Both the position numbers and the translations under genes were made by a program. Of a DNA stretch of 25,412 nt, positions 6,115 to 17,638 are shown piece after piece (position 1 is the stretch's first letter; every line of letters begins with the position of its first letter). The stretch is from a virus (taxonomy: Duplodnaviria > Caudoviricetes). The stretch spans positions 1 through 25,412 of the IMG/VR virus record IMGVR_UViG_3300005764_000078. One strand, 5' to 3'. A model generated the notes under the pieces. The model ran no database searches. It saw nothing but the letters and a program-made list of their open reading frames with translations, and had not been told where the DNA came from.

Positions 6115-8940
6115 TTGTCGAAAGTCACCGCTCGGCAAATCCGGCTACTCGCCCCATACCTTGAGGGCGACCACCCGACCCACACGAATACCGATAAGGA
6201 GACCGGAGATACAACTCGTGAATGGAACCTTCATTGCCCGCTCCACGGCGACGAGAGAAGGAGCGCAAGCCTCAACATTGACAAGGGTCTCTTCTGGTGC
6301 GCTCGTTGCGGAGGTATGCCTATCACCGCGCTTCTACGTCGAAAAGATGATTGGGTTCCGTTCTCCCGCAATGGTAGTGTTCCTGATCCTGATCTTGATG
6401 CCTCAGCACCAGACAAGCGGCATAGGATTCTTTCTGATGCCATGGTCGCCGGGTGGCACAGCGCGCTCATGAGCAACGAGGCAGCCCTACGTTGGCTGAA
6501 GGAGCGGCGCGGGCTGAACACAAAGACGCTCGAGAGATATGAGATCGGGATGCAGAATGAGAAGTATTACACGATCCCGATTCGTGACATTGATCGCAGT
6601 ATCTGGAACATACGCTACTACAACCCGAACCCGACCGACGAGCGCCGTAAGATCTGGAGTGAGTCAGGCTACGGCTCCCCTCCCAGGCTATACCCGATGA
6701 GCATCTTTGAGGAAGATCCGGAAGAGATCATCATTGGCGGCGGCGAATGGGACATCCTTCTCACGCTACAGAATGGCTTTGCTGCCATCACCCGTACGGG
6801 GAACGAAGACTTCTGGCTAGCGGAGTGGGGTGAATGGTTCAAGGATCGTATCGTCTACCTCGCCCATGACTGTGATGAGAAGGGGCAGAAAGCTAACCGC
6901 GTGGCAGGGCGCGCACTCCAGCACGTAGCAGATGTGCGCGTCATCCAGCTTCCGTACGCCATCCTACCCAAACACGGCAAGGATCTCACCGACTACCTCC
7001 TTGACCATGAACCGGGCGCACTACGGACTTGTATGGAGGCAGCAGAGCCGTTCCTACGTGCCAAGCCTATACGTGAGACTCACACGGTGAGCGTGCTTGA
7101 TACACAGGATGCTAGGCGCGTAGGCAAGCCGGTGCGGGTGGTGGTGACGGTAAAGGGTCGCAAGGAACCTGGCTACACCATACCGAGCAAGATACGGCTA
7201 GCCTGTACACAGGACGCCGGTACCAAGTGCAACATCTGCCCGATGCGGGCTGTGAATGGTGAGGCCGAAGTAGAGGTTACGCCAGATAGCCCCCTGGTTC
7301 TCAACCTAGTTGAACACACTGCGAATGAAGTATCGAAAGTGATCGCTGATTTCTACGGTGTACCGGGTGGTAAGTGCGTCAAGCTGGTGCAGGAGGTTGA
7401 CGAGTATCAGGCCGTAGAGGTCTTGTTCGCTCGTCCCGCGCTTGACAGCACCGATGGGGCAGATGTTCGTCCGGAAGCAGCGCAGTACAAGACCATCAAG
7501 ATCACGAGCGTAGGACGGCACGATACTCCGCCCAACAACACTGTGTCAATCATCGGTGCGCTACATCCTAACCCCAAGACGCAACATAACGAGTTCCTGG
7601 CGCATGAGCTAGAGCTCCTAGAGACAAGCGTTGATCGCTTTCAACTGAACGCCAATGCTATCAAGCAGATGAAGATCTTTCAGACTCCAAGGAACCCGCT
7701 GTCCAAGCTGCGTAGTATTGCAAGGTCCTTGGCAGAACATGTGACGATGATTCATGGTCGGCCCGCCATGCATATCCTGATGGACCTGACATTCCATAGT
7801 GCCCTCTCCTTCACCTTTGCCGGAGAGCTAGTTGAGCGAGGCTGGCTCGAGAGCCTGGTCGTGGGCGACACAAGGACGGGAAAGTCCTTGGCGGCGCAAC
7901 GGCTGGTGCGACACTACGGCGCGGGTGAGATCATCTCCTGTGAGGCAGCTAGCTTCGCCGGTGTGATCGGTGGTCTACAGCAAATAGGGGGACGGGATTG
8001 GGCAGTCACATGGGGCATCGTGCCCATCAATGACCGCAGGCTGGTCGTGCTTGATGAGATCAGCGGGCTAACGCCTGATCAGATAGCGGCTATGAGTGAC
8101 ATCCGCTCTTCCGGCCGGGCAAAGCTCACCAAGATTGAGCAGGAGGCAACGTGGGCGCGTACGAGACTTTTGTGGTTGGGCAATCCACGTAACGCGACCA
8201 TGGCGAACTATACATGGGGTGTTGACGCAATCAAGCCGCTGATAGGCAACGCCGAGGACATCGCCCGCTTTGATTTGGCCATGGCCGTAACCCTCGGGGA
8301 CGTACCGGCAGAGATCATCAACAAGCGCGTAGAGTCGGGTGAGTTTCGCTACACGAGCGAAGCCTGCCAAACGCTTCTGCGGTGGGTCTGGACGCGCACA
8401 CCGGAGCAGATCATCTTTGGGAAACGAGCAGAAAATGTGGTGTTCAATGCGGCAAATGAGATTGGGAAGTTGTACGTAGAAGATCCCCCACTCATACAGG
8501 CAGCTAACATACGCATCAAGATTGCGCGCGTAGCAGTAGCTATTGCGGCGCGTACATTCAGCACTGACCGCACGCACCAGAAGATCATGGTACTGCCCGA
8601 CCATGTCGGGGCGGCGGTCAAGTTCCTGAACTCTCTATACGGTATGCAAGAATTTGGCTACCGTGAGCGTAGCAAGGATCTAATCGCAGACAGAAGAGAG
8701 GCCGAGAACAACCGCGAGAAGATCTCAGAGTACCTACGGGATCAACCTACGCTCGCAAAGTTTCTACGCAGCGCGGGTAAGTTCCGCCGGCAGGACATTG
8801 AAGAGATCATGCAGATGAGCAGAGAGGAAGCCAATGGCGTAATCTATACGCTGTACCAGAACCGCATGGTCCGAAAGGTGCTCGGTGATGTCGTAGTAGA
8901 GCCGACCCTTCACTCTATACTGAGGGAGCACAAAAGATGA
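6115..8940 (+). CDS. Primase-helicase fusion: CHC2 zinc finger + TOPRIM + MCM-like AAA+ helicase
   Basis: CPLHGD...CARC; TOPRIM GEWD, HDCDEKG, GKDLTDY; second Cys cluster CTQDAGTKCNIC; Walker A VVGDTRTGKS, ASFAGVIGG, Walker B LVVLDE, arginine finger IARFD. TTG start is uncertain. Confidence 0.88.
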   Translation: MSKVTARQIRLLAPYLEGDHPTHTNTDKETGDTTREWNLHCPLHGDERRSASLNIDKGLFWCARCGGMPITALLRRKDDWVPFSRNGSVPDPDLDASAPDKRHRILSDAMVAGWHSALMSNEAALRWLKERRGLNTKTLERYEIGMQNEKYYTIPIRDIDRSIWNIRYYNPNPTDERRKIWSESGYGSPPRLYPMSIFEEDPEEIIIGGGEWDILLTLQNGFAAITRTGNEDFWLAEWGEWFKDRIVYLAHDCDEKGQKANRVAGRALQHVADVRVIQLPYAILPKHGKDLTDYLLDHEPGALRTCMEAAEPFLRAKPIRETHTVSVLDTQDARRVGKPVRVVVTVKGRKEPGYTIPSKIRLACTQDAGTKCNICPMRAVNGEAEVEVTPDSPLVLNLVEHTANEVSKVIADFYGVPGGKCVKLVQEVDEYQAVEVLFARPALDSTDGADVRPEAAQYKTIKITSVGRHDTPPNNTVSIIGALHPNPKTQHNEFLAHELELLETSVDRFQLNANAIKQMKIFQTPRNPLSKLRSIARSLAEHVTMIHGRPAMHILMDLTFHSALSFTFAGELVERGWLESLVVGDTRTGKSLAAQRLVRHYGAGEIISCEAASFAGVIGGLQQIGGRDWAVTWGIVPINDRRLVVLDEISGLTPDQIAAMSDIRSSGRAKLTKIEQEATWARTRLLWLGNPRNATMANYTWGVDAIKPLIGNAEDIARFDLAMAVTLGDVPAEIINKRVESGEFRYTSEACQTLLRWVWTRTPEQIIFGKRAENVVFNAANEIGKLYVEDPPLIQAANIRIKIARVAVAIAARTFSTDRTHQKIMVLPDHVGAAVKFLNSLYGMQEFGYRERSKDLIADRREAENNREKISEYLRDQPTLAKFLRSAGKFRRQDIEEIMQMSREEANGVIYTLYQNRMVRKVLGDVVVEPTLHSILREHKR

Positions 8941-9266
8941 GTGCATTCACGCAGCAAGAGGTAGATGAGTTGTATGCCAACATAGGCCGAAGGGTATCAA
9001 GGCAAGACAACACCCCACACGATGAGCAGGAGATCTCACATCAGATGATCACCTTCTGGGAAGGAATCATCTGGTTGCGTGATACCCTCTACGACCCTGA
9101 TACACACCTTGGTACAGAAGACATCATCAAAGATCGCGGAGCCTTCCTCAAAGATTTGACTGAGGAGAAGGTTCTTCTTGACCCGGAGGCAGCCTTTAAG
9201 AGATTGTGGATCGCCATCGGTAACGTCATGCACCGCAAGCTATTCCCGGAGGAATACGAAGCGTGA
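8937..9266 (+). CDS. Hypothetical protein (109 aa)
   Basis: ATGA overlap and GGGAG upstream; translationally coupled on both sides. Confidence 0.75.
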   Translation: MSAFTQQEVDELYANIGRRVSRQDNTPHDEQEISHQMITFWEGIIWLRDTLYDPDTHLGTEDIIKDRGAFLKDLTEEKVLLDPEAAFKRLWIAIGNVMHRKLFPEEYEA

Positions 9267-10066
9267 AGAACATTGGTGTGCTCGGCTGCGGGCCGACAGG
9301 GTTACTAGTGGCACACGCAATTGAGCAGGCTGGACACGTACCGCACATCATCAGCAAGAAGGAGAAGTCAGACATCCCCGGTAGTCAGCATCTCCACGGG
9401 GCGATACCGGGCCTGACGTCAGAGTACCCAGAGGGTACCATCCAGTTTGTTCGCATCGGGACGGCAAAAGAGTACGCCATGAAGGTGTACCGCGATCCCG
9501 AACGAGAGACCGGCTGGGACCACTACTGGCAGGTGTACCCATCCTGGAATGTCCTGCGTGCGTACGACGAGCTCTGGCGGAGATACGAAGATCAGATTAG
9601 CGATCTGATGATCTTACATGAAGACATGCCCGCATTAATCAGCATGTACGATAGCATCATCAGCACAATCCCGATGTGGGGTCTCTGCCTCAGGCCGGAG
9701 GAGCATGAGTTCCGTAGCCAAGACTATTGGATCAAGCGACTGCCCACCCCCGAAGCTGACAAGGATCACGAGATCGTGGTCTACAACGGACTGCGCTCAG
9801 ATCACTGGTACCGCTGGTCAATTCTGGGCGGGCTGTGCTCGATCGAATCAACAAGCTGGATGGATACTGGCGATCCCGAATGGGAGAAAGGAGTCAAAGC
9901 AATAGACAACAACTGCGACTGCTGGCCAACCGTACACCGTTGCGGCAGGTGGGCAGAGTGGACGCACGGTATCACGATGTACACGAGCTACGTCAAAGCC
10001 ACCCGAATAATGGAGTCTCTCAATGACAAACGACCTCTCGCCGCCACCCGAAGGAACAATCTCTGA
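9263..10066 (+). CDS. FAD/NAD(P)-binding oxidoreductase, Glf (UDP-galactopyranose mutase)/HemY-like architecture
   Basis: GGAGG SD, GTGA overlap; Rossmann motif IGVLGCGPTGLLVAHAI; IISTIP; C-terminal CGRWAEW resembling the GRxAxY/W flavin-contact motif. Confidence 0.75.
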   Translation: MKNIGVLGCGPTGLLVAHAIEQAGHVPHIISKKEKSDIPGSQHLHGAIPGLTSEYPEGTIQFVRIGTAKEYAMKVYRDPERETGWDHYWQVYPSWNVLRAYDELWRRYEDQISDLMILHEDMPALISMYDSIISTIPMWGLCLRPEEHEFRSQDYWIKRLPTPEADKDHEIVVYNGLRSDHWYRWSILGGLCSIESTSWMDTGDPEWEKGVKAIDNNCDCWPTVHRCGRWAEWTHGITMYTSYVKATRIMESLNDKRPLAATRRNNL

Positions 10067-10337
10067 TGCAGACTTCAGAGAGTACATACAGGTCATCAAT
10101 GCTGCGCTCCTCATTCACTACGAGCGCGAGCGTGTCCGGCAGGGTTTGTGGAAAGAGTATGAGGCCAAGGATCAAGTCAACTCGATCAAGATCAAAGCAG
10201 ACCGACTGTCTCGTTCCTTCGAGATCCTCGCTCGCGCAAAGGATCCAGACCTTCGGGAAGAGCTTCTAGAGAACATGGCCGGAGAGCTCTACGACATCAT
10301 CAACTACTCGAACTTCGCGGTAAGGCAGTTGAAATGA
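10023..10337 (+). CDS. Nucleotide modification associated domain 1 (Nmad1/DUF1599)-like, MazG-type helical protein
   Basis: GGAG SD; GLW...IKIKADRL...ELYDIINYS pattern. Confidence 0.7.
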   Translation: MTNDLSPPPEGTISDADFREYIQVINAALLIHYERERVRQGLWKEYEAKDQVNSIKIKADRLSRSFEILARAKDPDLREELLENMAGELYDIINYSNFAVRQLK

Positions 10338-10534
10338 TCGTCAAACTCAAAGGTGCTGAAGGAGGATGGTTCGATCTTCTCTGCGAAGAAGTCGTGATAC
10401 CGCTGGGTGACGAATCTGAATTTATCGCTATCAGCGTGATAAACGAGGATGAGATACTAGTCATCCGTCACAGTAAGGACTATCCTAATGAGGATGAGTG
10501 TGTGTGGTCAGAGATCTTGAGTGAACATGCCTGA
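10334..10534 (+). CDS. Small acidic hypothetical protein (66 aa)
   Basis: ATGA overlap; fills the gap between Nmad1-like gene and dnaE. Confidence 0.65.
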   Translation: MIVKLKGAEGGWFDLLCEEVVIPLGDESEFIAISVINEDEILVIRHSKDYPNEDECVWSEILSEHA

Positions 10535-13500
10535 ACATCACGGCACTGAATTTGTTGACATCCACGTTCCGGTGCACCGGGATGGGCATGGTCACACAAC
10601 CCCGGTCGTCATCCGTAAGATCAAGCGTACGCGACGACTGCCGCAACGTACGAAAGAAATGACTTTCGCGTCTTTGCACCATCACACAACCTTCTCATAC
10701 GGAGACGGTTACGCATTGCCTGAGGCTCACATACGTAGGGCCACAGAGATTGGTCTCAACGCCCTCGCGGTCACCGAACACGGGAACATCTCTAGCCACG
10801 TACAGGCAGAGGTGGCTGCGAAGAAGGCAGGGATCAAGCCCATTTTCGGTGTGGAGCTCTACACCGGAGAGCTAGGAGAGAACGCTACTCAGCGCAAGAA
10901 CCATCTCACGGTCTTGGCTGAAAACGAGCAAGGGTATCAGAACCTATTACAGTTGGTCACCAAGACATACGCGGAGGGATTCTACTATGAGCCCACTGCA
11001 ACTGGTCGCATGCTTCTTGACCATAGTCACGGTCTGGTTGTGCTTTCAGGCTGTCAGGGATCTGCTCTCTTCACTGCTCTCGTGGGTGGCAAACACGTAC
11101 AGGAGGATGAAGCAGGCTATGGCAGAGCGAAAAGAGTGGCGTCTCAGTACAAGCGTGTTCTCGGCGACAGGTACTACATCGAAGTACAAGCCTTTCCTGA
11201 GCTCGAGAAGACGCGTCAGGCGAATCCGCTTCTGGTTCAGATCGCGGAAGAGCTCGGGATACCCTACGTTGTAACATTCGATTGTCATTACACCATGCCG
11301 GAGGAGAAGGAAATACAGAAAATCCTGCACAACCTCCGGCCGGGCGAGAAACGTACAATCGAGGAGATGGCACGTGAGTGGGGATACGACTCCAACCTAT
11401 GTCCTCCGTGGACAGATTCCATGGTCATCCGAAAACTTGTTGGAACAGGTCTTTCGCATCGTCAAGCGATGGCAGCGATACTCACCACGCGGGACGTGGC
11501 AGATCGATGTACAGTTGATCTTCCCTCACTGCCGATGGTTCGCTTTCCCGTGCCACCAGAATACGAAAATAGCATCACGCTCTGGCGAGAGTGGCTCAAA
11601 CGAGGCTGGCATGAGCGCGGTGTAGAAAACCTGTCTATACGCACGCGACGAGAGTACGCCGACCGACTACGACATGAGATGAAGATCATCGAAGACAAGG
11701 ATTTCGTTGACTACTTCCTCGTAGTAGCCGACGCCATTCAGTTCGCAAAGAACCATGACATCGGCGTCGGCCCGGCACGCGGCAGTAGCGCGGGCAGCCT
11801 CGCTTGTTGGCTCCTACGCATCACGGAAGTCAACCCGATGCTGTACCCTGACGACCTCATCTTCGAGCGGTTCATTGATGTGACCCGTCAAGACCTGCCC
11901 GACGTGGATGTTGACTTCAACAGCGAACGCAGAAGCGAAGTATACGAGTACCTGCTCAGCAAGTATGGCGAAGGTAAGGTAGGCAATGTCGGTACGTTCA
12001 CCAAGTACAAGGGTAAGAACAGCCTAGATGACGCGGCTCGGGTCTTCCATGTACCAACATGGGAGATTGACCGTATCAAGGATGTACTCATAGAGAGGAG
12101 CTCGGGTGATCTACGTGCGTCTGCCACGATTGAAGATACGGCTGAGCAGTTCCCACAGGCACGCGAAGTTTTCGAGAAGTATCCAGATTTGGGTGCGGCT
12201 CTCGACCTCGAAGGGAATTACAAAGGGTTCGGGGTCCATTCGGCTGGTCTGGTTGTATCCACTGGGCCACTCACGAACGTCGCCGCAACGTACCAGCGAT
12301 TGGTTAAGGGAGAGATACGCCAAGTCATCTCTATGGACAAGTATGACGCCGAAAAGAAAGGACTCCTCAAGCTAGACTTTCTAGGGCTAACAAACATGAC
12401 GGCCATTGACAACATGCGCAAGGAAATGGGATGGTCTCTCGATGAGCTCTACGACATAGATGTACACGATCCAGAGTTGATCAAGGGATTCGCAGCCAAT
12501 GACGTCATCGGCATCTTCCAGTTTGAAGGGCCAGCCTGCCGCTACGTCAATGGCGCGCTACAGCCTGAGACCTTCAAGCACGTATACGATGTGACTGCCC
12601 TCGCCCGGCCAGGACCGCTTCACAACGGTGCGGCCAACGAGTACATCGACATCAAGTGGGGGCGGAAACCAATCGAGCAGATACACCCTGCGATGAGCAA
12701 CATTTGTGACGCAACCTACGGGCAAGTTGTCTACCAAGAACAGATTCTTCGCATCCTGGGAGAGATAGGGGGATTTGACCATACGCACCGGGCTGAAGTT
12801 CGTCGTATTATCTCACGCAAAATTGGAGAGCAAGAGTTCAACCGAAGGTGGGGAAGATTCCGAGACGGAGCAGTTAGACTCCACCAAATGGAAGAAGATA
12901 TTGCTCGTAAAATCTGGATGACCTGCATCACCGCCGGTGCGTATGCCTTCAACGCGGCGCATGCGGTGTCATACGGTATGATCGCCAGCCATGCGATGTG
13001 GTTCAAACGCTACGAGCCAGAGCTCTTCTACAAGCACATGCTCCGGGTTTCGGCAGACGACCGACAGCGTACACTCCTACGCGATACGCAGCGCAAGGGT
13101 AGAAAGATGACGATCAAGCCGCCTGACCCGAAGAAGAGCAGTGTTACTTGGACGAGCCATAATGGTGACCTCGTAGCAGGCTTCTCACAGGTACCGGGTA
13201 TTGGCGATGTCACCTCACAGAAGATCGTAGAGTACCGCAACGAGAACAGGGTTGAAGAATGGCACGATCTCCTGAAAGTCAGCGGGATCGGGCCGAAGAC
13301 ACTTGAGACAATTACTGAGTTCGTCAATCAGGGTGATGATCCATTCGGCGCGCTCTGGCTAGACCGCGCGATTGCGGCAACCAAGCTAGAGATCAAGAAT
13401 GGTAAGCTACCCGTTCCCAAACCAACGCATCTAGCTGAGGACTTCCCATACGAGCGCGGGCCAATAGACATTGAGTGTGTATGGCTCGGGACACTGTTCA

Positions 13501-13820
13501 GCCGCAACGAACGAGACCTGTTCGAATTTAACCAGGCAAAGGGTGCAGAGCTCGATATGAGTGATCCGAAGCATCCACTACTGAATGGTAAGCCTATCAA
13601 GGATCCACACCTTGACAAATGGGTCGTGATGGTAGGCCATGATGAGAGCGATCAAATTGGCCTCCGAGTAGACCGCTGGCGCTATCCGCGTCTCCGTGAC
13701 CAGGTGTGGAAAATCAGGCCAGGGAAAGACCTCGTCCTGGTCCGAGGAGTCAAGCCGGGGTGGATGCCGACTAGGCAGATCACCATCAGTGAGCTCTGGA
13801 TCATCGATCCGGAGATTTAG
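10527..13820 (+). CDS. dnaE: DNA polymerase III alpha subunit (DnaE-like, family C) with intact PHP domain
   Basis: PHP motifs HHHTTFSYGDG, TEHG, GVELY, SGC, DCHY; GPARGSSAGSL; catalytic PDVDVDF and KLDFLGL; GIFQFE; YAFNAAHA; HhH motifs. Start may be 10521, 10527 or 10659. Confidence 0.96.
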   Translation: MPEHHGTEFVDIHVPVHRDGHGHTTPVVIRKIKRTRRLPQRTKEMTFASLHHHTTFSYGDGYALPEAHIRRATEIGLNALAVTEHGNISSHVQAEVAAKKAGIKPIFGVELYTGELGENATQRKNHLTVLAENEQGYQNLLQLVTKTYAEGFYYEPTATGRMLLDHSHGLVVLSGCQGSALFTALVGGKHVQEDEAGYGRAKRVASQYKRVLGDRYYIEVQAFPELEKTRQANPLLVQIAEELGIPYVVTFDCHYTMPEEKEIQKILHNLRPGEKRTIEEMAREWGYDSNLCPPWTDSMVIRKLVGTGLSHRQAMAAILTTRDVADRCTVDLPSLPMVRFPVPPEYENSITLWREWLKRGWHERGVENLSIRTRREYADRLRHEMKIIEDKDFVDYFLVVADAIQFAKNHDIGVGPARGSSAGSLACWLLRITEVNPMLYPDDLIFERFIDVTRQDLPDVDVDFNSERRSEVYEYLLSKYGEGKVGNVGTFTKYKGKNSLDDAARVFHVPTWEIDRIKDVLIERSSGDLRASATIEDTAEQFPQAREVFEKYPDLGAALDLEGNYKGFGVHSAGLVVSTGPLTNVAATYQRLVKGEIRQVISMDKYDAEKKGLLKLDFLGLTNMTAIDNMRKEMGWSLDELYDIDVHDPELIKGFAANDVIGIFQFEGPACRYVNGALQPETFKHVYDVTALARPGPLHNGAANEYIDIKWGRKPIEQIHPAMSNICDATYGQVVYQEQILRILGEIGGFDHTHRAEVRRIISRKIGEQEFNRRWGRFRDGAVRLHQMEEDIARKIWMTCITAGAYAFNAAHAVSYGMIASHAMWFKRYEPELFYKHMLRVSADDRQRTLLRDTQRKGRKMTIKPPDPKKSSVTWTSHNGDLVAGFSQVPGIGDVTSQKIVEYRNENRVEEWHDLLKVSGIGPKTLETITEFVNQGDDPFGALWLDRAIAATKLEIKNGKLPVPKPTHLAEDFPYERGPIDIECVWLGTLFSRNERDLFEFNQAKGAELDMSDPKHPLLNGKPIKDPHLDKWVVMVGHDESDQIGLRVDRWRYPRLRDQVWKIRPGKDLVLVRGVKPGWMPTRQITISELWIIDPEI

Positions 13821-13831
13821 GAGGGAGGGTA

Positions 13832-13918
13832 ATGAGCGAGGCAGAGACGCCCGAAGGCACGGAAGAGGAGCCAGAGGCAGAAGGCACGGAAGAGGAAAGC
13901 ACGGAAGAGGAAGAGTGA
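13832..13918 (+). CDS. 28-aa hyperacidic peptide (not in ORF track)
   Basis: Strong SD GGAGGGAGG then ATG at 13832; MSEAETPEGTEEEPEAEGTEEESTEEEE (15 Glu, no basic residue). Confidence 0.6.
   Translation: MSEAETPEGTEEEPEAEGTEEESTEEEE
13857..13911 (+). repeat. Three copies of GCACGGAAGAGGA (encoding TEEE units)
   Basis: Exact 13-mers at 13857, 13884 and 13899. Confidence 0.9.
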
Positions 13919-13930
13919 TCAATGTGGGAC

Positions 13931-14057
13931 GTGCAGCAATGGGTGAAAAGTGACGATGCTCCTGTCATCGTACACAGATCAAGGGCACCGGGTTCCTAGG
14001 CTGGATCCTGTGATCGGGGCTGCACCGGAGCGGCCTGAGGCTGTCGCTCCATTCTGT
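13931..14057 (+). promoter_or_regulatory. Structured 5' leader (riboswitch-like) upstream of rpf-like gene
   Basis: P1 GTGCAGC 13931-13937 / GCTGCAC 14019-14025 enclosing two hairpins, followed by hairpin GGAGCGGC 14027-14034 / GTCGCTCC 14043-14050 and ATTCTGT. Confidence 0.45.
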
Positions 14058-14076
14058 CAACAATCCAAGGAGGGCT

Positions 14077-14442
14077 GTGAAGCTAACGGCCACCATTCTA
14101 GCCGCGTTCTGCGTGGCGTTCATTCTAGGCTCCACCGGAGCCGCCAACGGCAAGACGCATTCGGATTACGTCATGCGGGGTCTGCTTTGCATACACCGCT
14201 ACGAGGGATCCTGGAGAGCGAACACCGGCAACGGATACTACGGTGGTCTGCAGATGGACAGAGAATTCCAGCAGACCTTTGGTTGGATACGTATTCACGG
14301 CTCGCGAATGCAGTTCATTTCGCAGTGGGGGTACGCACACAACTGGCCTGTTTGGGCTCAGTTGCAGACAGGAAGGAACGGGTACAGGGCGCGGGGATGG
14401 TATCCCTGGCCAAACACAGCCCGCATCTGCGGGTTGATCTAA
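14077..14442 (+). CDS. Secreted resuscitation-promoting factor (Rpf)-like lytic transglycosylase
   Basis: AAGGAGGG SD; signal peptide MKLTATILAAFCVAFILGSTGAANG; CIHRYEGSWRANTGNGYYGGLQM with catalytic Glu; Q...GWYPWP...CG. Confidence 0.88.
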   Translation: MKLTATILAAFCVAFILGSTGAANGKTHSDYVMRGLLCIHRYEGSWRANTGNGYYGGLQMDREFQQTFGWIRIHGSRMQFISQWGYAHNWPVWAQLQTGRNGYRARGWYPWPNTARICGLI

Positions 14443-14464
14443 ATCATCTACCGAGAGGGAGCAA

Positions 14465-14863
14465 ATGCTGACGAAGAACCTAATCGCAGCGGATATCGCA
14501 TCTGATACCGGGATCAAAGTAAACCTCGTCAAACACGTTCTCGACTCGCTGGCAGACCTAGCTGCCGCCGAGATCGAAGAGGGAGAGGACTTCATCGTTC
14601 CCGGTGTCGTCAAGATCGCGTACACCTACCGCGCACCGCAGAAGAAGGGCGCACGCTGGAAGAAGGGAGAAGAGCGGACAGGGTTCGGTGGTATCACATC
14701 AGTAGCAGAGGAAGACAGCCCTCCGGTCACCGAACTCATCCGGCTGAAGGCAATGCCCACCGGCGCGGTAGGACGTCTACGACCAGGCACCAAGCCGGAT
14801 GTACAGAAGGCATTCCTCAGGAGCAAGGCGGGCAAGACTGTCCGTTCGAGGAAGGCAAAGTAA
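14465..14863 (+). CDS. HU/IHF-family DNA-binding protein, divergent arm and basic C-terminal tail
   Basis: MLTKNLIAADIASDTGI...VKHVLDSL...EIEEGEDFIVPGVVKI helical body plus beta arm; K/R-rich tail. Confidence 0.8.
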   Translation: MLTKNLIAADIASDTGIKVNLVKHVLDSLADLAAAEIEEGEDFIVPGVVKIAYTYRAPQKKGARWKKGEERTGFGGITSVAEEDSPPVTELIRLKAMPTGAVGRLRPGTKPDVQKAFLRSKAGKTVRSRKAK

Positions 14864-14864
14864 C

Positions 14865-15761
14865 ATGACAGAGCCCGGCAAGGACATCATCCGGTGGGCC
14901 GATGAGGCCATGTATGAGTCCCAGCCGATGCTGACGGAGGAGGGCGCGGGAATAACTCCCCGCGCCTTCCTTCTGAACGCAACACCGGATCCGCTCGGTA
15001 CATGTGCGGCAGATATGCGGATGTACAGAGGAAATCCCGTCTACAGCCTAGACGAGATCACGGATGAGCAGCGCCGGTGGGCCTGGGAAGAACTCAGTAA
15101 GACACACCTCAACACCCCGCTCGAGGGTGTGAGCGTCAAGTTCATGCTCGAAGCAGTCACGCGCAGCTTCACTCACCAAATGGTCCGGCAACGGGTGGGT
15201 GCGTACTACGTGCAAGAAAGTCTACGCTTTGCAGTCAAGCGAGGACTTGCGAATGAAGTGGCCAAGCCTCCCTTTGTCATTGGAAATGAAATCCCAGAAC
15301 AGATTTGGGATCAGACGATCAAGCGCATTGGCGATGCCTACAATTCGCTGATCAACGCGGGCATCCCCGCCGAAGACGCGCGAGGTCTGCTCCCGCACGC
15401 AACGACAACCCGTATCATTTACCACACGAACTTGCGCGCGCTCTTCGAGCATGCAGGGAATCGTCTCTGTACGCAGGCGCAATTTGAATGGCGTGCGGTC
15501 TTCATGTCGATGATACAGGCGATGAAAGAATTTCCTACTGACGATAGATGGCAATGGGATCTCATCGCGGAACCGAAGGCATACACGTTCACACCTATCT
15601 GCTACCGGCTCGGCCGCTGCGCGTTCATGAGCCATCTCGATCGTGGTTGCACCATTCGCGAGCGCGTCAACGACGGACGATTTGAGGACATAGACCCGGC
15701 CGAATGGATGGCGAACCCCTGGGCGGGGATTACCACAGAAGATCAACCACGACCTGTATAA
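14865..15761 (+). CDS. thyX: FAD-dependent thymidylate synthase (ThyX)-like protein
   Basis: ATG 14865 after HU stop; TPLE, TRSFTHQMVRQR...QESLRF, EDARGLLP, TNLRAL, RLCTQAQFEWR. Confidence 0.88.
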   Translation: MTEPGKDIIRWADEAMYESQPMLTEEGAGITPRAFLLNATPDPLGTCAADMRMYRGNPVYSLDEITDEQRRWAWEELSKTHLNTPLEGVSVKFMLEAVTRSFTHQMVRQRVGAYYVQESLRFAVKRGLANEVAKPPFVIGNEIPEQIWDQTIKRIGDAYNSLINAGIPAEDARGLLPHATTTRIIYHTNLRALFEHAGNRLCTQAQFEWRAVFMSMIQAMKEFPTDDRWQWDLIAEPKAYTFTPICYRLGRCAFMSHLDRGCTIRERVNDGRFEDIDPAEWMANPWAGITTEDQPRPV

Positions 15762-15769
15762 GGAGGAAA

Positions 15770-16084
15770 ATGTCGTACGAGAAATACCACAAGTCCTTGA
15801 TTGACTGCAAGCAGGTCAGACCGTACGTCAAGGAACTTGTGCTTAGGTGCGGCAATGCGAAGGCAGCGGGTGAGTATTCTCTGGTCGCTGCTTCTACAAT
15901 CCACAGAATCCTCCATAACGTGCATTGTACAGTTCAGCAAGAGACCGCACGCAAGCTCTTCCTAGCTCTTCAGCATCGGCGCGAGGAAGATCGTAAGAAC
16001 CATGAGGTACACGACGAGCTCCTCAAGGCAAGGAAAGAACAGGCCAGACAAGAAGATCGCCTAGAGCGGTTGATCGGGTACTGA
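15770..16084 (+). CDS. Putative helix-turn-helix DNA-binding protein (104 aa)
   Basis: AAGGAGG SD then ATG 15770; GNAKAAGEYSLVAASTIHRILH...VQQETARKL resembles an XRE/Cro-type HTH; charged helical C-terminus. Confidence 0.6.
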   Translation: MSYEKYHKSLIDCKQVRPYVKELVLRCGNAKAAGEYSLVAASTIHRILHNVHCTVQQETARKLFLALQHRREEDRKNHEVHDELLKARKEQARQEDRLERLIGY

Positions 16085-16941
16085 TGAGCAGAGGAGTCAT
16101 CATTGTCACCCGAGATAGAATTGATACGCTCCGAAAGACGCTTCCCAACTGGCTGGAACAGGAATTACCTATTCTGCTACTCACCGAGAAGAACCAGGTA
16201 CCAGAACATCAGGCTCTCGTAAGAGAGCTTGGTGCGAAGAAGGAGATTGTCGTCGCCGGTCACCCCAAAAAGAACCAAGGGATCGGCTATGCAAGAATGC
16301 GAGCCGTAGAGATAGCCGATACATTCGGCATCGAGGCTTTCATCATGGCCGATGACGACATGAAGATCACCAAGGGGCATCCGAATGTTCTCCTAGATTT
16401 CGTCGCGGCAGAAAAGGCGATCATCTGCGGCGGCTGGATGCCAAACTACGGGCAGTGGGTTCCGGATGGGAATAGAATTAGCAAGGAATCAAATCTGGTC
16501 GTACCCTGTGGTGGCGCTCGTGACCGTGTGATGGCGATCAACACAAAGCTAGCACTGGTAGCTGGAAACTTCCACCCGAAGCTGAAGACACTTGACACAC
16601 AAGAGATGAACCGGCGTGGCATCAAGATCGGACATCTGTGGTGGATTCATTCCGGCTGTCATATCGCGATGGTCAACAAGCCGCATGACGATGGCGGAAT
16701 TCAGGCGATGTACAAGACCGAGAAAGAGCGGGCTGCCCAGAACTTGAAGGATCACGAACTGACGTTCAAGCTGTGGGGTCCGAAATACATCAGCCCGCCG
16801 CCAAAGCGCATGTCCACGAAGTGGCTCATTCTGGCTACCGATTATATCGGTCCAAAGGCTGCCGAAGCCCTGCGGCTGGCGCGCCCGTACCCCGCAGAAA
16901 GAGTTGCTTCAGCCCTGCGTATGTTCGGGGGCAGGCCGTAG
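16084..16941 (+). CDS. GT-A fold glycosyltransferase, TAGT/GREB1-like (DNA-base glycosyltransferase-like)
   Basis: IIVTRDR, GIGYARMRAVE, FIMADDDM (DxD), late DDGGI motif; no signal peptide or TM segment. Confidence 0.7.
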   Translation: MSRGVIIVTRDRIDTLRKTLPNWLEQELPILLLTEKNQVPEHQALVRELGAKKEIVVAGHPKKNQGIGYARMRAVEIADTFGIEAFIMADDDMKITKGHPNVLLDFVAAEKAIICGGWMPNYGQWVPDGNRISKESNLVVPCGGARDRVMAINTKLALVAGNFHPKLKTLDTQEMNRRGIKIGHLWWIHSGCHIAMVNKPHDDGGIQAMYKTEKERAAQNLKDHELTFKLWGPKYISPPPKRMSTKWLILATDYIGPKAAEALRLARPYPAERVASALRMFGGRP

Positions 16942-16949
16942 GATGGGGG

Positions 16950-17021
16950 ACCGCTTGTCCAAGCCGTTGCACGAGGCTAGTGGGCCTGGAATGGGGTCCC
17001 TAAACCGCTTGTCCAAGCGGT
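16950..17021. promoter_or_regulatory. Pair of 18-bp palindromic operator-like sites
   Basis: ACCGCTTG-TC-CAAGCGGT at 17004-17021 (perfect 8-2-8 inverted repeat) and ACCGCTTG-TC-CAAGCCGT at 16950-16967 (one mismatch). Confidence 0.6.
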
Positions 17022-17176
17022 CTAATACCCTAGTCGCACCGTGCAGCCCACTGCACTGGCCGTACAAAGACACATCCAGCGGAGGCCCTACGGGGTGGGT
17101 TTACCCCTATCCTCTTTCCAGGCAGAGGATGAGGACTTCTGCAACCACCGTCTAGGTCTGAAAGGAGGCTACCGGC

Positions 17177-17638
17177 GTGAGCTACCTGACACAGTGGGTA
17201 GATCCAGCCCTAGAGATTAAGGCTGAAGAAAGCGCGGAGAAGATCACGCAAGAAGAGCTGAAGCGTCTGCTGCGGCTAAACGCCGTCGCGGCAGCTGCGG
17301 GAAGCATACCCCGCAGAGTTGGCAGCGAGGCTTCTTCTGAGGATCTCTCGGTAGACAAGAAGCGCTGTAGAAGGATTGCCCACGTGACATTACAGCTGGC
17401 GTCCTCCTGGTCAGACAAAGACCCGAGCAGACTAAAGGACGAACAGAACGTCACACAGGAAGCTGCCGTGATCAACTGGTCGACCTGGTGGGAAGGTCAC
17501 AAGGTCTGGCTAATCAACCGGCGACGCTACATCGCCACCTGGTCTTCGCGGCAACCGGGGCAGGAACGCTGGTCGAAGAGCGCGATGGTCAAGCTCAACA
17601 ATGAGATGCTCTGGCTCGGGTACGCGCTGAGGGACTAG
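17177..17638 (+). CDS. Hypothetical protein (153 aa, Trp-rich C-half)
   Basis: AAAGGAGG at 17161-17168 and GTG at 17177; last gene of the + strand arm. Confidence 0.75.
   Translation: MSYLTQWVDPALEIKAEESAEKITQEELKRLLRLNAVAAAAGSIPRRVGSEASSEDLSVDKKRCRRIAHVTLQLASSWSDKDPSRLKDEQNVTQEAAVINWSTWWEGHKVWLINRRRYIATWSSRQPGQERWSKSAMVKLNNEMLWLGYALRD

Follow-up and report, generated by a model that had tools for sequence, protein, structure and literature searches.

A conserved phage gene module built around a ThyX variant: a candidate pathway for sugar-modified thymine

The DNA analysed here, referred to as the window, comes from the genome of a tailed phage, of which it covers a fragment of 25,412 bases (IMG/VR record IMGVR_UViG_3300005764_000078). 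Its gene for a phage DnaE is flanked by genes for a small flavoprotein, an Nmad1-like protein, a ThyX variant and a GT-A glycosyltransferase (GT) (Table 1). The pathway consists of three core genes, encoding the flavoprotein, the Nmad1-like protein (small and helical) and the ThyX variant, with the GT as an optional addition. The likely role of this module is to attach a sugar to thymine in phage DNA, a reading suggested by its distant relatives in Pseudomonas phages with reported sugar-bearing thymidine. A sequence-only reading of the window had proposed all four genes as a DNA base-modification pathway arranged around dnaE. The four open reading frames (ORFs) lie on the plus strand where that reading placed them, the flavoprotein and Nmad1-like genes overlap by 44 bases, and a Pfam scan of the 32 window ORFs agrees that neither TET/JBP nor ThyA is matched in the window. 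The genes do flank dnaE, but a 66-codon ORF and Rpf-like and HU-like genes intervene.

Table 1. Genes of the module and their immediate neighbours in the window.
Feature	Position	Strand	Basis
Small virus-type FAD-binding flavoprotein, core gene	9263..10066	+	PHROG 8720, predicted model, fold searches
Nmad1 (DUF1599)-like small protein of putative function, core gene	10023..10337	+	Sub-cut-off DUF1599 score, custom profile
66-residue ORF, not core; shared by the closest relative only	10334..10534	+	
Phage DnaE (PHP + polymerase III alpha)	10659..13820	+	Pfam DNA_pol3_alpha, E 1e-65
ThyX variant, core gene	14865..15761	+	Pfam Thy1, E 3.6e-33; ThyX fold
104-residue ORF between the ThyX and GT genes	15770..16084	+	
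GT-A glycosyltransferase, TAGT-like, accessory gene	16084..16941	+	GT2/TAGT scores, Asp triplet

The core genes are tightly linked in other phages. A scan from the ThyX variant took in the best 80 of 147 viral loci and one locus from a bacterial assembly, and the flavoprotein was present in 58 of these 81 loci. Where a locus had at least 7.5 kb of upstream sequence, the count rose to 54 of 55; the contig of the lone exception stops at the HAD gene that normally follows the flavoprotein. The reverse scan found at least 155 flavoprotein loci, of which 80 were kept (68 of them new). Among the 44 listed with at least 9 kb downstream, ThyX is present in 43, the Nmad1-like gene (by a custom profile) in 43, a HAD phosphatase in 39, an SDR in 18, a methyltransferase in 8 and the GT in 4, counts that overstate independence because the loci are not species-reduced, partly overlap, include near-identical contigs and share descent. 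The three genes are contiguous in loci L015, L017 and L023, and stay together through changes of order elsewhere.

All three core genes, together with an orthologous DnaE, also occur in each of the eight cultured actinophages examined: PBI1 (gp58-65), Hager (gp53-55), Ranch (gp69-84), PHTowN, Wollypog, Onyinye, Terapin and P3.1. Most of these cassettes add a HAD phosphatase and some an SDR or a methyltransferase, whereas none has the window's GT. Their genes are annotated as oxidoreductase and ThyX-like, with neither a function nor a base assigned in the available text (PMC11385102). The flavoprotein was found in 126 GenBank phage records, where it is annotated as an oxidoreductase, while a search of bacterial genomes with a narrow pattern gave no match for it. 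An actinobacterial assembly includes one copy of the module, on a contig of 65 kb that is probably viral. Of 273 records sharing the DnaE type, seven sister phages were checked and none has the flavoprotein; the four sister dnaE neighbourhoods examined hold no ThyX variant, Nmad1-like gene or HAD phosphatase, and two sisters carry a high-scoring Thy1 gene far from dnaE. It follows that the replication core can occur without the module.

Of the four genes first read as a unit, three co-occur and the GT is sporadic. Relatives of the GT, 11 of which were found in a protein search, are encoded in 8 of the 81 ThyX-variant loci, 2 of 13 whole records and 1 of 5 complete uncultured relatives, with no match among 50,697 GenBank phage records. 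The GT had been given a central place in the pathway; as most module-bearing genomes lack it, that place is not supported, and the GT was rejected as a core gene for its rarity in module loci and its absence from phage records. Among 12 distinct GT sequences, six lie at most 400 bases from the ThyX variant and six at 6-12 kb, a spacing and rarity compatible with an optional tailoring role. Its description as TAGT-like holds in part: the window GT scores 24.7 bits with GT2 (cut-off 23.3), and four of the five GT relatives tested pass the TAGT cut-off of 27.5 bits (28.8-38 bits), but the window protein falls below it at 23.5 bits. An Asp triplet at residues 90-92 is invariant. TET/JBP searches of five complete relatives, one with a GT, gave no match, the control likewise giving none anywhere. 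The 104-residue ORF that precedes the GT gene occurs also in one relative without a GT.

The ThyX variant matches ThyX chains by fold (Foldseek E 2e-10). Compared with T. maritima ThyX (TM0449), it has Leu82 in place of His53, Gln109 in place of His79 and Phe122 in place of Tyr91, with Leu82 aligning to the residue that is mutated in the H53A chain 4gtf. The positions of Arg78, Arg80, Ser88, Arg90, Arg174 and Glu58 are retained, and the five arginine and serine residues, which contact deoxyuridine monophosphate (dUMP) or flavin, are invariant in 121 of 121 aligned rows. The substitutions were compared between 50 actinobacterial ThyX sequences (the 30 best-scoring and 20 picked for spread, from 201 genomes with a match) and a viral set of 94; among the off-pattern rows of the latter are fragments, misalignments and a single ordinary ThyX. 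The His53 site is His in 50/50 bacterial sequences and Leu in 88/94 viral ones, the His79 site His in 50/50 and Gln in 85/94, and the Tyr91 site Tyr in 46/50 and Phe in 90/94. His53 stacks on folate in ThyX, and a Y91F change lowers the rate of flavin oxidation about 1000-fold (PMC11940539). The C. glutamicum ThyX, which has Phe there, is called atypical and ThyA-dependent in its PDB entry title. Judged by its aligned residues, the variant has lost folate-contacting residues yet keeps its dUMP contacts.

In a second viral ThyX clade the three sites are occupied by Leu, Ser/Thr and Ala in all 24 sequences. On a quick tree the variants form a long-branch viral clade, and the two viral clades are joined with support of 84; as this junction spans long branches, one origin does not follow from it. 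Canonical ThyX has the fold and the dUMP and flavin contacts in common with the window variant, but differs at the three sites, while the variant belongs to a viral clade with fixed partner genes. An eight-residue spacing before the ThyX serine was considered as a special feature and rejected, bacterial ThyX sharing the same spacing.

The flavoprotein belongs to PHROG 8720 (E 3.8e-42), a family with no assigned function, and has no match in Pfam, the GLF profile included. Its predicted model (pLDDT 94) has UDP-galactopyranose mutase as Foldseek rank 1 (TMq 0.55, 10% identity) and aligns with the mutase at Z 14.8 in VIA (root-mean-square deviation 4.0, 262 residues aligned). In the Atlas, about two dozen matches precede the first named one, those displayed being viral clusters at 0.98; of the named clusters a mutase lies nearest, at 0.92, with amine-oxidase types at 0.91-0.92. 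On the profile of the flavoprotein family, six true mutases reach no more than 6.1 bits. The proposal of a Glf-like Rossmann flavoprotein stands as regards a fold shared with mutases and, almost as closely, with flavin monooxygenases, but not as regards a GLF profile match or full-length homology; a true Glf was rejected on sequence, given the missing GLF match, an alignment restricted to the N-terminus and the low profile scores. According to a PDB entry title, mutases form a flavin-N5 sugar adduct. On one contig (L123:3165-4091) an in-frame stop splits the flavoprotein gene.

The Nmad1-like protein had been assigned to Nmad1/MazG, and the profiles do not bear this out: its DUF1599 score is 16 bits against a cut-off of 25, and it matches no MazG profile. 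Two of seven relatives score 17.5 and 13.5 bits with DUF1599 and the other five have no match; none of five cultured genomes gives a DUF1599 hit. The family is held together by its own profile, which also finds the gene in all eight cultured phages, and by one Asp that is invariant in 96 of 97 sequences. The names Nmad1 and TAGT reportedly originate with Iyer et al. in 2013, and Nmad1 is said to occur in nucleotide-modification gene neighbourhoods.

Distant relatives of the module are found in the Pbunaviruses F8, 14-1 and LBL3 and the Wifcevirus WFH. Their ThyX proteins, the Pbunavirus ones matching at E 1e-28 to 1e-30, have Ile, Thr and Ala at the three lost sites. All four encode a related flavoprotein near ThyX, for which the flavoprotein profile gives 21.8-23.6 bits in F8, 14-1 and LBL3 and 16.4 bits in WFH, against at most 6.1 for the six mutases and below 0 for reversed controls. 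Also nearby is a gene for a HAD protein whose tail is weakly Nmad1-like, in WFH together with an SDR. F8 and 14-1 resemble the window in having a ThyX that lacks these residues, a flavoprotein of related sequence, a large polymerase gene and, fused to a HAD domain, a weakly Nmad1-like part. The window differs in that its Nmad1-like gene stands alone, a HAD phosphatase is missing and a GT is added. Between its SDR and polymerase genes WFH also has an unannotated 183-residue gene (gp62, L314:11438-11989) whose product is glyoxalase-like by eye.

The DNA of F8 and 14-1 is reported to contain thymidine derivatives that bear a sugar and have masses of 362 and 390 Da, located in a TG context and replacing about a quarter of T (bioRxiv 10.1101/2025.03.31.646159). 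The available part of this preprint assigns no gene to the base, and its main text does not contain the word thymidylate. Deoxyuridine (dU) plus a pentose, minus H2O and plus H2, gives 362.13, and dU plus a hexose, minus H2O, gives 390.13, matching the reported masses. The first of these is the formula of the ThyX reaction with a pentose replacing formaldehyde.

A flavin-based route to a glycosylated base had been put forward as new. This claim is not supported, since two precedents have been published: an FMN-bearing ThyA-fold dCMP hydroxylase that feeds arabinosylation, and a DNA-glycosylation cluster of a phage that includes a UDP-galactopyranose mutase (PMC13326640). The glycosylated 5-hydroxycytosine pathway of RB69, DLP3 and RL38J1 likewise uses a repurposed flavin-using thymidylate-synthase homologue and GTs, with the mutase in the RL38J1 cluster, but combines a ThyA fold with cytosine, in contrast to the window's ThyX fold and uracil-type site; the RL38J1 protein is a clear mutase (Z 50.3), that of the window a 255-residue look-alike (Z 15) (PMC13326640). 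The 5-hydroxymethyl-dU hypermodifications of M6, ViI and PaMx11 share a modified thymine, combinatorial tailoring and, in PaMx11, a flavoenzyme, but are built with a ThyA-fold hydroxymethylase together with a DNA kinase and a transferase for amino acids (PMC8989533); ThyA was found neither in the window nor in the five complete relatives searched. A literature search that covered few subscription journals returned no paper assigning DNA modification to a ThyX-fold enzyme, and the available parts of PMC7824862 and PMC13307970 hold nothing on ThyX-fold base modification.

Tight co-occurrence, joint absence from sister phages, loss of the folate site and the Pbunavirus orthologues make a role in base modification likely for the ThyX variant, the flavoprotein and the Nmad1-like protein, which retains the proposed base-modification locus without the GT as its centre. 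The module probably makes some non-standard thymine. The route we favour, with a probability of roughly one in three (0.35), is direct attachment of a sugar to C5 by the ThyX variant. In this proposal the variant would use reduced flavin to attach a sugar-derived chain, rather than a one-carbon unit, to C5 of dUMP, and the mutase-like flavoprotein would prepare the sugar donor. The Nmad1-like protein may act on the nucleotide pool, putatively as a dNTPase, the phage DnaE would build the modified nucleotide into DNA, and the GT, where present, would add a further sugar. A more specific version, which must be called rather doubtful, makes the variant a folate-independent C5 sugar-transferase supplied by a minimal mutase-like flavoprotein: an aldose would be captured on the reduced flavin and joined to dUMP by a C-C bond, followed by reduction (a pentose giving the open chain of 362 Da) or closure by a sugar hydroxyl (a hexose giving the C-glycoside of 390 Da). 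On this proposal the window phage's own DNA would be modified.

Besides the non-independence of the loci, several points weigh against direct C5 attachment. The Pbunavirus link is distant, with ThyX at about 28% identity, flavoprotein E values of 2e-4 to 6e-4 (database size 1e5) and an Nmad1-like match that has E 0.0097 for 14-1 and is below threshold for F8. The ThyX proteins of F8 and 14-1 are 94% identical and their flavoproteins 97%, yet the two phages have different bases, and the base could be the work of other Pbunavirus genes. A TG context with a quarter of T replaced is easier to reconcile with a step on DNA than with a route through the nucleotide pool, and the reported fragments were read as a four-carbon sugar alcohol and a cyclic pentose on thymidine (bioRxiv 10.1101/2025.03.31.646159). 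Hydroxymethyl-dU carrying a tetritol in ether linkage or a pentose as a glycoside has the same two formulas (362.13 and 390.13), and the masses cannot separate a C5-sugar from an O-linked route. Phe at the Tyr91 site also occurs in 4/50 bacterial ThyX. The flavoprotein fold fits flavin monooxygenases almost as well as the mutase (Z 13.6 and 14.8), the protein is over 100 residues shorter than the six mutases compared, and its profile alignment to mutases (probability 85.5) is confined to the first 120 residues (110 columns). The window has none of the HAD phosphatase genes present in 39 of the 44 listed loci, and no nucleotide kinase was identified.

Several of these points favour an O-linked sugar, a doubtful alternative that lies near the idea of the sequence-only reading. 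The ThyX variant would make 5-hydroxymethyl- or 5-hydroxy-dUMP and the sugar would be added to the oxygen afterwards, perhaps at particular sequence contexts in the DNA itself. The flavoprotein would either provide a furanose donor or oxidise the base, and the GT would take part in those phages that have it. The fit of both masses to hydroxymethyl-dU bearing a tetritol or a pentose, the TG context and the published pairing of a flavin-using ThyA-fold hydroxylase with a phage mutase in a DNA-glycosylation cluster agree with this, as do the half of the distinct GT sequences that lie beside the ThyX variant and the TAGT scores of the GT relatives. A hydroxymethyl group, however, needs a one-carbon donor and the folate-stacking His is lost; glycosides of 5-hydroxy-dU would have masses of 376 and 406 rather than those reported, and the GT family is missing from most module genomes, with none in the two Pbunavirus/Wifcevirus gene sets scored.

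It is unlikely that the module serves to make ordinary thymidylate with little use of folate and to clean up the nucleotide pool. The flavoprotein might in that case, for example, release formaldehyde for the ThyX variant or supply it with reduced flavin; the DNA would be canonical and the Pbunavirus base would come from other genes. All dUMP-contacting residues are retained, ThyX can methylate dUMP from formaldehyde without folate through a flavin-N5 adduct (PMC8316439), none of the five complete relatives has ThyA and four of them have a single Thy1, and the public annotation of the variant is thymidylate synthase. Relative G005, however, keeps an ordinary ThyX immediately downstream of the variant (L023:11951-12709), the Tyr91 required for the formaldehyde-adduct step is replaced, and the shifting sets of tailoring-type genes (SDR, methyltransferase and GT) among the listed loci suggest varied products. 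Quite unlikely is an arrangement with no single DNA pathway, in which the flavoprotein and GT would produce or consume a sugar nucleotide in the glycosylation of virion or host molecules, or a small anti-defence nucleotide would be made, the linkage reflecting shared descent in a replication operon. The six GT sequences remote from ThyX, a separate GT in the tail region of PHTowN and the mutase-like fold of the flavoprotein accord with it, but most genomes have the flavoprotein without a GT, and the core genes stay together despite changes of order and recur in Pbunavirus and Wifcevirus.

In the rest of the window, the plus strand carries replication genes as far as 17,638 and the minus strand baseplate and tail genes. 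Complete or near-complete relatives span 53-88 kb, so that more than half of the genome likely lies outside the fragment. The open frame of dnaE begins at 10521, while its alignment with relatives begins at 10659. The interval between dnaE and the ThyX variant holds an Rpf-like transglycosylase gene with a signal-peptide-like start (14077-14442) and an HU-like gene (14465-14863), an arrangement seen in this clade. The last gene of the plus-strand block (17177-17638), at the convergence of the two transcription directions, is conserved but of no known family, with relatives in 25 of the 81 loci. Upstream, positions 6115-8940 encode a 941-residue primase-helicase fusion in PHROG 18685 with no Pfam match.

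Further observations concern the relatives. In L023 the DnaE frame (12891-17132) has 1413 codons, with about 280 extra residues past position 764 that are possibly an intein. Hager has a weakly pyrimidine-dimer-glycosylase-like gene (E 0.045; L001:17459-18004) upstream of the flavoprotein, a relative of which is present in PHTowN (L003:18820-19374). The Mycobacterium phage Weiss13, a sister without the module, carries in the slot behind dnaE a divergent ThyA-fold gene (gp76, L308:11800-12801; Pfam E 5e-15). By eye, its product has Asn at the Asp169 position, which has been used as a marker of pyrimidine hydroxylases (PMC13326640), and Asn at the uracil-specifying position; it is a candidate dUMP hydroxylase.

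Working as proposed, the conserved module would be a new form of phage pyrimidine hypermodification. The analysis names candidate genes for the sugar-modified thymine of Pbunaviruses, a phage family used in therapy, and predicts the same kind of base in more than 100 cultured actinophage records. Were the ThyX variant to transfer a sugar, ThyX chemistry would extend beyond methylation, and the module would supply the missing pathway for the Pbunavirus bases: glycosylated DNA made without a glycosyltransferase across actinophages, Pbunaviruses and Wifceviruses. It would also bear on which nucleases recognise the phages that carry the module.

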